A DNA stretch of 64,000 nt, from the NCBI RefSeq assembly GCF_058153355.1, contig NZ_CM177019.1. One strand, written 5' to 3'. The position numbers are program-made. The stretch's first letter is position 1; each line of letters begins with the position of its first letter. Positions 16,240 through 19,200 of this stretch are shown piece after piece.

Positions 16240-19200
16240 TAAAATTACATTAATTATCAACATGTTAGTGTGAGCAGGTCATTATTAGTCAAAATAAAAT
16301 CATTTGTTGATTTCAATTTTGTCCCATTCTCTCCCTCGGCTGTCCCTATACCGCGCCGCCATTGAATCTGATTTATGCCCGAGAAGACGTTGAGCAAATT
16401 TATCGCCAATCTGGTTCCGGTATAGCCTCGCTGACAGGCTACGCAGTTCATGGAATGTTGGCGGGTCTCCATCAAATGAGAGTCCGGAGGCATTTCTCGC
16501 CTTTGTAAAATACTTTGATACTGTTTTCGGGGAAAGCGGATCGTGATGCTTTGATGCGATTATAGTTTCACTGCTGCTGGCTTCCCTGCATTTCTGTAGT
16601 GTATCAACCAGTGAGATATTGAGCGCGTCAATCGTTAGCGTCAGCGGAATGGCGAGCTTAGCCCCTGTTTTACCCTGCTCAATGTGAAGATGGTTGTCGT
16701 TTATGTCTGACCACTTCATTCTACATAAATCGCCCACTCTCTGCCCTGTAATGACGGCCAAATCCATTGCCAGCCTCAGCCAGATAGGGAGAGGTTCGGC
16801 TGCATGGTAAATCTCGACATACTCATTAGCTGTCAGCCTTGAGCGCCTTACTTCTGACTTTGCTGTGCGGGTTGCTGTTACCGGATTCGTAGCCACATGC
16901 CCCTCGGCTATTGCTTCACGAAAAACGTCAACAAGGGTTGACCTGATTAATTTTGCGGAAGCCGCTTTACCTTCTGCTACGTAGGTATTTAGCATTGCTG
17001 CCACCTCTTTCGTTGATATGTCAGTGAGCGGTTTGTCCGGCAATTTTCTTCGAATTGCCCTGATTTTGCTGGCGTAGTCGAGTAGAGTTTTCGGTCTGAT
17101 GCCCCTCTCGCTGAGGATTGTTTCATATCGGTCAAGCCACGCATGAAGAGTGATTGCGTCAGCGCCTTTAATCCTGTCTATCAGTGACTCACGCCTGTTC
17201 TCAGATAGCAACTCAATATTGGCCTGAATAGCCTCTGAAACTGCTATCCTTCTGTCTCTGCCTAATCCGAACTCTTTACCCGTCCTTGGGTCCCTGTAGC
17301 AGTAATATCCATTGTTTCTTATATAAAGGTTAGGGGGTAAATCCCGGCGCTCATGACTTCGCCTTCTTCCCATTTCTGATCCTCTTCAAAAGGCTATCTG
17401 TTACTGGTCGATTTAAGTCAACCTTTACCGCTGATTCGTGGAACAAATACTCTCTTCCATCCTTAACCGGAGGAGGGAATATCCTGCACTCGCGTACCCA
17501 TCGACGAACTGTTTCAAGGCTCCTTGGGCGTCGCTGGCGTGCGTTCCACTCCTGAAGTGTCAAGTACATCGCAAAGTCTCCGCAATTACTCGCAAGGGAG
17601 CGAGTATTGGTTTATTTTCTCCAACAAAAAAGGAGCCGAAGCTCCTTTGATGATTAAAATTCGAATTGTCTCGCCCGAAGGCTTTTCAGCATTGGTTTTG
17701 CCCGTTCGAAAAGGGCGCTTGCTTGGTCAAGTCGTGTCGCCTCCCTTAGCAGTACATCTCTGTTTTTCGTCACCGTGTAAAAAGTTTCAAACGCGATGTC
17801 ATACAGCTTGCTCGTGTATGATGAGTTCAGTTCCTTCAATATCGGGTACAGACGTTTGCAGATGTCCTGCGCATTCTCCATCTGTACCTGCATATAGCAA
17901 AGGAGGATGATTTCTTCGTCTGTGAATTGCGGCTGAATCTGCGGCTGCAGTTCGGTTGGTGTTGTTTTTCCCTGGCTGAAATAACAGTCTTCCAGTTTTT
18001 CGAACACATCCCACGCCTGATCGGTTTCGAGCATTTTGGCATGACGGGCGGCACCGCGTTCTGTCCAGAGGATGAGCGAGCGAACGTTACGGGCGATTGT
18101 CACAGAGTGACTTAAAGACACTCTGTGCTTAAACTCACGCAATTCTGCACCTTCCAGCAAAAAATAATGTTTACCAATAACAAAACGTTCATGGTTTCGG
18201 CTGTGGTTTTTGCGAATATTAGTTACATCTGTGCCGTAAAGGTGGGCAAGAAGTTCAGTAGTAATAACGGGGATTTGGTTATGGCTGATCTGGGGTACCG
18301 TTTCTACGGTGATTTGAGTAGACATAGTCTTCTCCATATGTGTTTTAGTCTACGCTCACCAGTTAGTAGCTGGTGATCGGGTGTCAACTAGAGCCACATA
18401 TGAAGCTCCGGGCATATTCCCCTTGTGGGTATTGTATTACGCCTCTCCACCCGACCTTTGTACGGATGTAACTACGCCAAATTGCAGGCATAAAAAAGCC
18501 GCAAAGCTATCGGGTGCGGATGACCGCATATGTGTTCTAGTACGGCCAGTATGCGATAGCTTTGGCGGATTTGTCAAATCATGTAGGCCTTATCTTGCTG
18601 TAAGCCGCGCCATTCGGGCTTTTCCCCACATTTGGGGAAAACTATCTTGTCAAAATCATGCAGCCTTTCGCTCTCCTTCGATGAGTTCCTCTATTTTGTG
18701 CACTCCAGCCTCGTTGTACCGAAATGTTTCAACCTGCTTGTCATTGTGCGCCGATTTGTCGATGAACCACTTCCCGTACTTTTCTGTTTTGAGCATGTAG
18801 GTGTTGGCTATGCGTCCTACCTTGTTGGCTGAAATACCGTAGCGCTGGCCGACTTCCGTAGCAGAGTAGTAGTGCTCTGAGATAGCTGGCAGAGGTACAA
18901 CATCGCGACCAACAATCGGGTTGAACACTCCAGCTACTGCTGCCTGCTTTGATTCTGAGGACAGATTCGGGAACATATTCACCAGTCGATCCGCCACGTT
19001 CAAAGCTATTTCCATGGCTCGCGCACGGTCTAGGCTACTTTCTGGTTGCGGTACTGGTTGAGGATGGTTGGCAACCTTTTCGCGCTGATTGAAGTAGCCG
19101 TCCTCCAGTTTTTCGAACACGTCCCATGCCTGATCGGTTTCGAGCATCTTCGCGTGACGGGCGGCTCCGCGCTCTGTCCAGAGGATGAGGTGGCGTGCAT

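Follow-up and report, generated by a model that had tools for sequence, protein, structure and literature searches.

The stretch of DNA analysed here (contig NZ_CM177019.1 of NCBI RefSeq assembly GCF_058153355.1; 64,000 nucleotides, called the window below) contains a lambdoid prophage, in which a gap of about 320 bp (18338-18655) separates two paralogous genes whose proteins carry an ORF6N domain. The integrase gene occupies 16300-17373 and a xis-like open reading frame (ORF) 17351-17569. All coordinates are those of the window + strand. The gap encodes an RNA of a known family, sRNA-Xcc1, and is probably the control region of the antirepressor-type gene that lies downstream. The RNA and the genes on its two sides are as follows.

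17654-18337 as called, 17654-18325 from the preferred start, minus strand: downstream gene, antirepressor-type, 223 amino acids
18367-18456, minus strand: sRNA-Xcc1 family RNA (Rfam RF02221, found with cmscan), 90 nucleotides (nt), on the strand of both flanking genes
18656-19438, minus strand: upstream ORF6N gene, 260 amino acids, with the Pfam domain ORF6N alone

The downstream protein has an ORF6N domain (Pfam, E = 6e-18) and the C-terminal domain of the P22 antirepressor, P22_AR_C (E = 1.3e-9). Its true start is probably the ATG at 18325-18323, which has GGAG (18335-18332) ahead of it. Read from this codon the protein begins with 'MSTQITVETV', parallel to the 'MNTQISVETL' of the paralogue.

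A preliminary description of this DNA had found no ORF of plausible size in the gap. This holds: the only ORFs are short or overlap genes in antisense (32-46 amino acids), and a 139-amino-acid ORF on the + strand (18381-18800) extends antisense into the upstream ORF6N gene. The minus strand of the whole gap folds with -112.9 kcal/mol compared with -95.1 +/- 5.5 kcal/mol for shuffled sequences (z = -3.2; none of 100 shuffles was as good). The gap sequence is matched in 875 of 5426 complete E. coli genomes. The same description had pointed to two hairpins and offered a small RNA and a regulatory leader as alternatives. Both are supported, but neither of the two hairpins is the RNA. They are accessory, and the core feature, missed there, is the 90-nt RNA of the minus strand.

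The RNA matches the RF02221 model over its full length (model positions 1-87 of 87) with 63.8 bits, above the gathering score of 53 (E = 4e-10), and is thus a member of the family. It is a three-way junction made of a closing stem P1, a hairpin P2, a hairpin P3 and a single-stranded junction, after which the 3' strand of P1 follows. The minimum free energy fold of the 90-mer alone is the same junction, at -33.3 kcal/mol. Its elements lie as follows, together with a small hairpin that directly follows P1.

18456-18448 paired with 18383-18375, minus strand: closing stem P1, 9 bp
18430-18438 and 18414-18419, minus strand: the two sides of the P2 internal loop, AAUACAA-N-A and GAAUA
18409-18390, minus strand: hairpin P3
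18374-18371, minus strand: ACCA tail after stem P1
18357-18375, minus strand: small hairpin P4, CACCAG-CUACUAA-CUGGUG (inverted repeat I1, also seen in the folds), which overlaps the ACCA tail

The internal loop of P2, AAUACAAUACCC-ACAA-GGGGAAUA, is conserved, with a consensus of AAUACAA-N-ACCC, a GNRA-like tetraloop and GGGGAAUA; the three-way junction bearing this loop is that of RF02221. The loop is almost invariant from the phages of E. coli through Xanthomonas. By eye it is not assignable to a k-turn or a loop-E motif, and it could be a candidate site for the binding of a protein or a ligand or for a tertiary contact. A short hairpin in the position of P4 is visible by eye, uncounted, in most relatives.

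An exact search for the core pattern of P2 gave at least 120 stretches in viral contigs and at least 120 in bacterial genomes (individual relatives are designated below by L and a number). Among the matches listed, the genomes include Xanthomonas, Pseudomonas, Haemophilus, Neisseria, Photorhabdus, Edwardsiella and Lysobacter, and the RNA family is spread over many Proteobacteria and reaches a few other phyla. There are phage contigs with a tandem pair of the RNA, the two copies 240-570 bp apart (7024-7110 and 7267-7355 in L035; 4967-5052 and 5543-5628 in L031; 10756-10841 and 11327-11413 in L061; 4233-4321 and 4527-4612 in L059). These pairs recall the five tandem sRNA-Xcc1 copies reported for Xylella (PMC12189769).

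A covariance model, R1, was built from a hand-structured seed (alignment A4), and 104 matches were aligned under its guidance; it scores the window RNA at 47.9 bits. Covariance analysis across homologous prophages had been proposed in the preliminary description as a check on the gap, and base-pair covariation was indeed found. In 102 distinct relatives, 20 of the 22 base pairs have changed on both sides, 92.7% of the cells are paired (65.9% after shuffling) and the covariation score is 0.659, compared with 0.171 after shuffling and at most 0.136 with the partners slid; these controls are given because the alignment was fitted to the model, so that the figures lean towards the structure. The controls argue that the structural covariation is not an artefact. 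An alignment of 140 motifs with MAFFT, analysed with RNAalifold, recovered only stem P1 and the inner stem of P2, because P2 and P3 were misaligned.

In several phage records hypothetical proteins are annotated on the opposite strand over the RNA region, for example orf43 of Stx2 phage 86 (2983-3576 in L002; Stx, Shiga toxin). They are probably miscalled ORFs over a non-coding RNA locus. That the gap hides a protein-coding gene of the + strand is barely credible. Such a gene would explain the hypothetical proteins under the match, and the window does hold the 139-amino-acid ORF mentioned above, but this ORF extends in antisense over part of the upstream gene, most records have no annotation at this place, and conservation tracks base-pair covariation and not a reading frame, the 'AUG' before stem P1 standing in differing frames. 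A leader peptide starting from this 'AUG' is ruled out for the same reason, the frame differing between members, and the window copy has no AUG at all.

Two parts of the RNA, designated a' and b', have complements on both sides of it on the same strand. The sites downstream of the RNA are called a2 and b2 and those upstream a1 and b1.

18541-18537, minus strand: a1, ACUAG
18534-18527, minus strand: b1, which together with a1 reads ACUAGAACACAUAUG; both are placed 70 nt upstream of the RNA, where the transcript is predicted to start
18395-18405, minus strand: b' site, CUUCAUAUGUG, the P3 loop and flanking bases, complementary to b2 and b1
18386-18391, minus strand: a' site, CUAGUU, in the single-stranded junction that links P3 to the 3' strand of stem P1
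18350-18346, minus strand: a2, GACUA, just upstream of b2
18342-18332, minus strand: b2, CACAUAUGGAG, which holds the Shine-Dalgarno (SD) sequence GGAG 18335-18332, 6 nt before the ATG at 18325

The b' and b2 sites form an inverted repeat of 11 nt with 91% complementarity (I3, 18332-18342 / 18395-18405), and b' and b1 one of 8 nt with 100% complementarity (I8, 18395-18402 / 18527-18534). The a' and a2 sites form 5 bp; in the duplex fold UAGUU pairs with GACUA. The two-site duplex of the RNA with the a2b2 region has an energy of -22.6 kcal/mol. The a1b1 region is a direct repeat of a2b2, 15 nt long and 93% identical (D2, 18527-18541 and 18335-18349). As far as can be read from the sequence, pairing at a2b2 probably covers the SD of the downstream gene.

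Whether these complementarities belong to the family can be judged from an alignment-free test, in which the loop and the junction of each locus were compared with their own flanks and with the flanks of all other loci (184 instances, 131 distinct loops). The measure was the longest complement, specific to the loop or to the junction.

b' with b2: own locus 7.58 nt, foreign loci 6.03 nt, p = 1e-18
b' with b1: own locus 7.50 nt, foreign loci 6.29 nt, p = 1e-18
a' with a2: own locus 5.07 nt, foreign loci 4.65 nt, p = 8e-9
a' with a1: own locus 5.18 nt, foreign loci 4.70 nt, p = 6e-16

Complements of at least 7 nt are present at both b1 and b2 in 123 of the 184 instances, the chance rate being about 29% per site. 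The 3' end of b2 is situated a median of 7 nt (interquartile range 6-8) ahead of the start codon across the family. In about 100 relatives that were inspected, the P3 loop and the site next to the SD change together, as in the loop and SD-site pairs UCUUUGAAG with CUUCAAAGG, CUCACUGA with UCAGUGAG, CUCGUUGA with UCAACGAG, and CCUGUGA with UCACAGG. The junction likewise covaries with its own target between subfamilies (e.g. UUCGAA, UACGAA/UUCGUA and UCUUAA/UUAAGA), and so do the upstream a1b1 copies across relatives; the b1 copies that covary with the P3 loop lie 65-110 nt upstream of stem P1 in most of them. Duplex prediction with RNAduplex, using the 3' half of the RNA and the 110 nt downstream, was too noisy to be of use: the own target beat all 20 foreign targets in 10 of 102 cases.

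The founding member of the family, sRNA-Xcc1 of Xanthomonas campestris, is about 100 nt long on a Northern blot and 88 nt as mapped by rapid amplification of cDNA ends. It sits in an integron cassette and was described as a trans-acting, virulence-linked small RNA (PMC2996969). A trans-acting RNA of the Hfq type, with its main targets among host or unlinked genes and its place beside an ORF6N gene incidental, would agree with the family name and with the published reading for Xanthomonas and Xylella (virulence regulation, vesicle delivery), and homologues were detected in Xylella cells and vesicles (PMC12189769). Such a role is nevertheless distinctly unlikely for the RNA of the gap. The P3 loop and the junction covary with sites of their own locus through 131 loop variants, which would not persist with conserved host genes as the targets, and the published targets are computational predictions only (PMC2996969, PMC12189769).

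The region upstream of the RNA contains a predicted promoter and a predicted attenuator. The two hairpins of the preliminary description lie in the same part of the gap.

18548-18577, minus strand: predicted sigma-70-like promoter, TTGACA (18577-18572), an 18-nt spacer and CATACT (18553-18548)
18492-18528, minus strand: predicted leader attenuator, two mutually exclusive hairpins and U6
18528-18515, minus strand: hairpin A, UGCGG-UCAU-CCGCA
18519-18499, minus strand: terminator hairpin CCGCA...UGCGG, then U6 at 18497-18492
18499-18568, minus strand: long-range stem of the preliminary description, 5' arm 18568-18554, 3' arm 18512-18499, then U6 at 18497-18492
18620-18641, no strand assigned: cccc palindrome, UUUUCCCCA-N4-UGGGGAAAA (inverted repeat I7), just past the stop codon of the upstream gene

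The promoter is the sole promoter-like site in a scan of 17500-19700, with 10 of 12 positions matched, and would start transcription near 18541. In the subfamily alignment A3 its TTGACA is conserved, as is a -10 element that has A in its second and T in its sixth position. No LexA box (CTGT-N8-ACAG) was seen at the promoter by eye. The minus-strand motif CAUGAUUU(U)GACAA at 18571-18583, which contains the -35 element TTGACA, recurs at 18647-18660, where the upstream ORF6N gene has its stop codon (D5, D6). The repeat may be a recombination junction that marks the boundary of the module.

RNAfold gives hairpin A for the leader (-9.4 kcal/mol), but the terminator hairpin (-5.3) once b1 and its flank are blocked. 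Since blocking b1 thus frees the terminator hairpin, pairing of the RNA with a1b1 may favour termination, a direction that is inferred. The leader motif b1-GCGG-N-CCGC-ACCCGAUAG..GCGG-U-run occurs across the family in 32 exact cases, and a T-run is present between b1 and stem P1 in 87 of 112 family members.

Both hairpins of the preliminary description are real. The long-range complementary segments have arms of 11 nt (18502-18512 / 18554-18564, 100% complementary) and lengthen to about 15 bp with one bulge (18499-18513 / 18554-18568); the arms of the second hairpin are 9 nt (18620-18628 / 18633-18641, 100% complementary). The long stem has the form of an intrinsic terminator, a G+C-rich stem directly before a U-run. 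A simple terminator scan, limited to loops of 3-8 nt, did not list it but gave terminator-like sites in the gap. Its 3' arm is part of the conserved terminator/attenuator hairpin, and its 5' arm lies in the promoter spacer. Only transcripts entering from the upstream ORF6N gene would form the full stem, which would there terminate them strongly and insulate the module. It is kept in the nearest relatives only (the window, L001, L002, L025, L102 and, in part, L036) and is absent from L037, L040, L058 and L105. The cccc palindrome lies outside the conserved module, is common only to the window, L001 and L002, and is ruled out as a terminator, there being no U-run after it on either strand.

It is highly improbable that these hairpins are merely terminators of the upstream ORF6N gene and that the gap has no further function. 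The long stem with its U6 does have a strong intrinsic terminator form for upstream transcripts, and the scan gives terminator-like sites in the gap. However, the same sequence of about 300 bp has another upstream gene in Stx phages and stays with the antirepressor gene downstream, conservation of the long stem ends at close relatives, and the gap holds a member of a curated RNA family, so that this explanation is already contradicted for the gap as a whole.

The gene that follows the RNA is on the same strand and begins about 35-45 nt past stem P1 in most loci. The downstream proteins in viral contigs (n = 98, Pfam) have the N-terminal domains Bro-N (24), P22_AR_N (14), KilA-N (13), ORF6N (11), AntA (8) and Rha (7), which amounts to 77 of 98 with an antirepressor-type N-terminal domain (about 79%) if no protein matches two; P22_AR_C is present in 19 of the 98. 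Of 100 downstream proteins in bacterial genomes, 40 carry an N-terminal domain from this list and one is SymE; many are small unknown proteins. Stx phages have the same 300 bp or so behind varying upstream genes and always ahead of an antirepressor gene. The module is found in VT2-Sakai, at NC_000902 60413-60653, and in 933W, Min27 and the O104:H4 phage P13374, and the strains O157 Sakai and EDL933 carry the homologue; in VT2-Sakai and phage F039 it directly precedes genes annotated 'anti-repressor Ant' or 'antirepressor'. The record of phage F039 already annotates the homologue as sRNA-Xcc1, and in a paper on APSE phages a copy upstream of an ORF6N protein was noted and left unexplained.

The closest architectural match is the c4 RNA of the immI operon of phages P1 and P7 (RF01695; c4-a1b1, RF03163). 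In the phage P1 record the order is promoters, a1 and b1 (annotated 'putative'), the 77-nt c4 RNA, a2 and b2 ('repression of icd ant translation'), icd and ant; b2 pairs with the long loop of c4 and a2 with its 3' junction. In the Rfam consensus of C4 the closing stem surrounds two hairpins, the first with a tetraloop and the second with a long loop; a single-stranded junction comes after them, and the tail contains CC. The window locus has the same order of a predicted promoter, a1b1, RNA, a2b2 over the ribosome-binding site (RBS) and an antirepressor-type gene, and its RNA has the same three-way-junction topology and CC-containing tail. Its b' site is in the loop of the second hairpin and its a' site in the 3' junction, a2 and b2 are just downstream on the same transcript with b2 over the RBS, and the duplicate targets a1 and b1 are upstream of the RNA in that transcript. 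The phage P1 leader also bears alternative hairpins of the form b1-GCGG-N4-CCGC...GCGG-U-run. The two RNAs differ in the closing stem (9 bp in the window RNA, about 17 in c4), in hairpin 1, where the large conserved internal loop of the window RNA has no counterpart in C4, and in the extra small hairpin between the window RNA and a2. The window RNA may be a distant relative of c4.

The c4 RNA of phage P1 reportedly represses in trans, as Citron and Schuster are said to have found in 1990; its 5' end is said to be made by RNase P at a tRNA-like stem with a 3' (R)CC(A) tail, a finding attributed to Hartmann et al. (1995). The window RNA has its ACCA tail in the same position, and CC occurs within 4 nt after stem P1 in 167 of the 184 instances.

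These features bear on the possibility that the RNA is a purely cis-acting leader, in which the P3 loop and the junction form a pseudoknot with the SD and a factor (protein, ligand or temperature) switches it at the P2 loop, with no separate small RNA and no immunity in trans. The pairing data fit cis and trans action alike, the motif always precedes the regulated start codon by 35-45 nt and shares its strand, and the near-invariant P2 internal loop (AAUACAA-N-ACCC / GGGGAAUA) is not needed by an antisense mechanism. A leader of this kind is unlikely all the same: a discrete 88-nt RNA was mapped in Xanthomonas (PMC2996969), the CC tail after stem P1 resembles a tRNA 3' end, as in c4, the covarying upstream a1b1 copies are not expected of a simple leader that sequesters the SD, and the phage P1 c4 is annotated as a separate 77-nt RNA with its sites in the icd-ant mRNA.

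Two other antirepressor systems can be compared. In the Salmonella prophage Gifsy-1 the promoter-proximal small RNA IsrK (RF01394) ends at an intrinsic terminator, with partial read-through into anrP, an antirepressor-like gene whose translation is controlled by RNA; the short RNA activates by remodelling the long transcript (PMC4825925). The window leader similarly has a terminator-like hairpin and U6 at 18519-18492, whereas the gap has no match to the isrK model and Gifsy-1 has no c4-like RNA in between. The a1b1 leader of phage P1 weakly resembles isrK (35 bits). In the immI region of phage P22, the sar RNA keeps the Ant antirepressor untranslated by pairing over the ant RBS. The window protein shares the C-terminal domain of the P22 antirepressor. 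However, sar is a true cis-antisense RNA, encoded on the opposite strand across the ant RBS, whereas the window regulator is encoded upstream on the same strand.

Taken with the pairing data, these comparisons favour c4-like antisense masking of the downstream RBS, combined with a leader attenuator, as the way in which the gap RNA works; the probability of this reading is put at about 0.72. Transcription would start at about 18541 from the promoter at 18577-18548, and the leader would open with a1 and b1. The two mutually exclusive hairpins, one of them an intrinsic terminator, would act as the attenuator. Transcripts that read through would hold the structured RNA of about 90 nt (18456-18367), whose b' (P3 loop) and a' (3' junction) would pair with b2 and a2, covering the SD and blocking translation of the antirepressor while the prophage is quiescent. 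By analogy with c4, a discrete RNA would be released and would act in trans as well as in cis; the tRNA-like stem that bears the ACCA tail may be where RNase P cuts. Its pairing with a1b1 would favour the terminator and so give negative feedback.

Several observations weigh against c4-like masking. The a pairings span only 5 bp and exceed those with foreign loci by little in absolute terms (5.07 compared with 4.65 nt). The b' loop holds CUU, which is complementary to any SD and raises the chance background. The near-invariant internal loop of P2 is left unexplained by antisense pairing. Unlike phage P1, whose antirepressor is reached by way of translating the small icd ORF, the window locus has no icd-like leader ORF, and b2 would here mask the SD of the antirepressor gene itself. 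The C4, c4-a1b1 and isrK models give no match in 18300-18700 even at E <= 10, and R1 scores the c4 of phage P1 at 7.5 bits (E = 0.5), where the C4 model (gathering score 45 bits) scores 68.8 bits; what is claimed is therefore likeness of architecture and not homology. A literature search for expression in E. coli gave a vesicle study of Shiga toxin-producing E. coli, which lists sRNA-Xcc1 as a genome annotation only. Finally, the members from Xanthomonas and Lysobacter (L124, L135, L151-L154, L169, L172, L175, L188, L195, L213) keep the b':b1 covariation, as in GCUCUUAG with CUAAGAGC and GCUAUGUG with CACAUAGC, with a1 in a hairpin loop, but no a2/b2 was seen at their constant downstream RBS. 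Masking of the SD is thus not universal in the family. The window copy differs from the Xanthomonas copies examined in having both pairs of sites. The persistence of b':b1 suggests, from sequence comparison, that the a1b1 interaction has a function of its own, which may be the more basic one.

Elsewhere in the window the prophage carries a canonical isrK and C4 module, with the following parts and neighbours.

37340-37416, plus strand: isrK (Rfam, 70.6 bits)
37444-37528, plus strand: C4 antisense RNA (Rfam, 75.9 bits)
37580-38257, plus strand: third paralogue with ORF6N and P22_AR_C (Pfam), behind isrK and C4
38326-39054, plus strand: Rha/ANT (KilAC) antirepressor-like gene, following the third paralogue

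The protein of the third paralogue is 50% identical to that of the gene downstream of the Xcc1 element, so that two RNA families occupy an equivalent position before paralogous genes in one prophage. The sites of the second module can be read from the sequence: a1 (AUUGAGAC) is in a hairpin loop and is accompanied by b1 (UACGGAG) and a terminator, b' (UUUCCGUAC) is in the loop of C4 hairpin 2, a' is AGUCUCAA, a2 is UUGAGAC, and b2 (GUACGGAG) lies over the SD. The a and b sequences of the two modules are unrelated. With the Xcc1 and the isrK/C4 modules the prophage carries two putative RNA-gated antirepressor modules of different RNA families.

A Gp49-like (DUF891) protein (36929-37339) and an HTH_3 protein (36631-36939), both on the minus strand, have a few bases in common and are directed away from the isrK promoter (Pfam); in sequence the arrangement looks like a toxin-antitoxin pair of the HigB/HigA type. 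The window further contains a lambda cIII thermoregulator element (23671-23729, minus strand, 88.5 bits) and two tRNA genes (40691-40762 and 40771-40843, plus strand), which are typical of lambdoid and Stx-like prophages. A 448-amino-acid ORF (14651-15997, plus strand), by eye similar to IS4-family transposases, lies just beyond the integrase end of the prophage.

Each phage has its own matched a and b sequences, and repression would therefore be phage-specific. Immunity of this kind is suggested by the diversity of the matched pairs (131 loop variants) and by the unrelated a and b sequences of the two modules in the window. Extended to the whole of RF02221, the argument would make the family a second structural class of c4-type immunity RNAs, widespread in phages and other mobile elements, with each copy matched to its own a1b1 and a2b2 and gating genes of the antirepressor type (Bro-N, KilA-N, ORF6N, AntA, Rha and P22 Ant); the Ant genes of Stx phages, VT2-Sakai for one, would be among these genes. 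For this extension the chances appear evenly divided. The b':b1 pairing beside the leader terminator, kept even in Xanthomonas members without a2/b2, may be an autoregulatory attenuation loop, and the internal loop of P2 may bind a further partner. Full-text searches, incomplete in coverage, returned no paper linking sRNA-Xcc1 to c4 or to antirepressor control.

The RNA family RF02221 itself was known, and for the element in the window the proposal is a variant of the known c4 mechanism; the reinterpretation of the family holds more interest. In place of the vague 'virulence-associated sRNA' it offers a specific mechanism that can be tested. The a1b1 sites of phage P1, which are annotated as 'putative', gain a possible function from the b':b1 pairing conserved next to a terminator. 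The C4 and Xcc1 RNAs, unrelated in appearance and presumably doing the same job for paralogous genes, would be a natural example of orthogonal RNA-RBS repressor pairs, and the 131 loop variants are a ready-made library for synthetic biology. For the Stx phage Phi24B, an Ant whose C-terminal domain is of the P22 type promotes efficient induction (PMC3064807). As the module lies upstream of Ant in Stx phages, the RNA could influence the induction of these prophages and the release of toxin.

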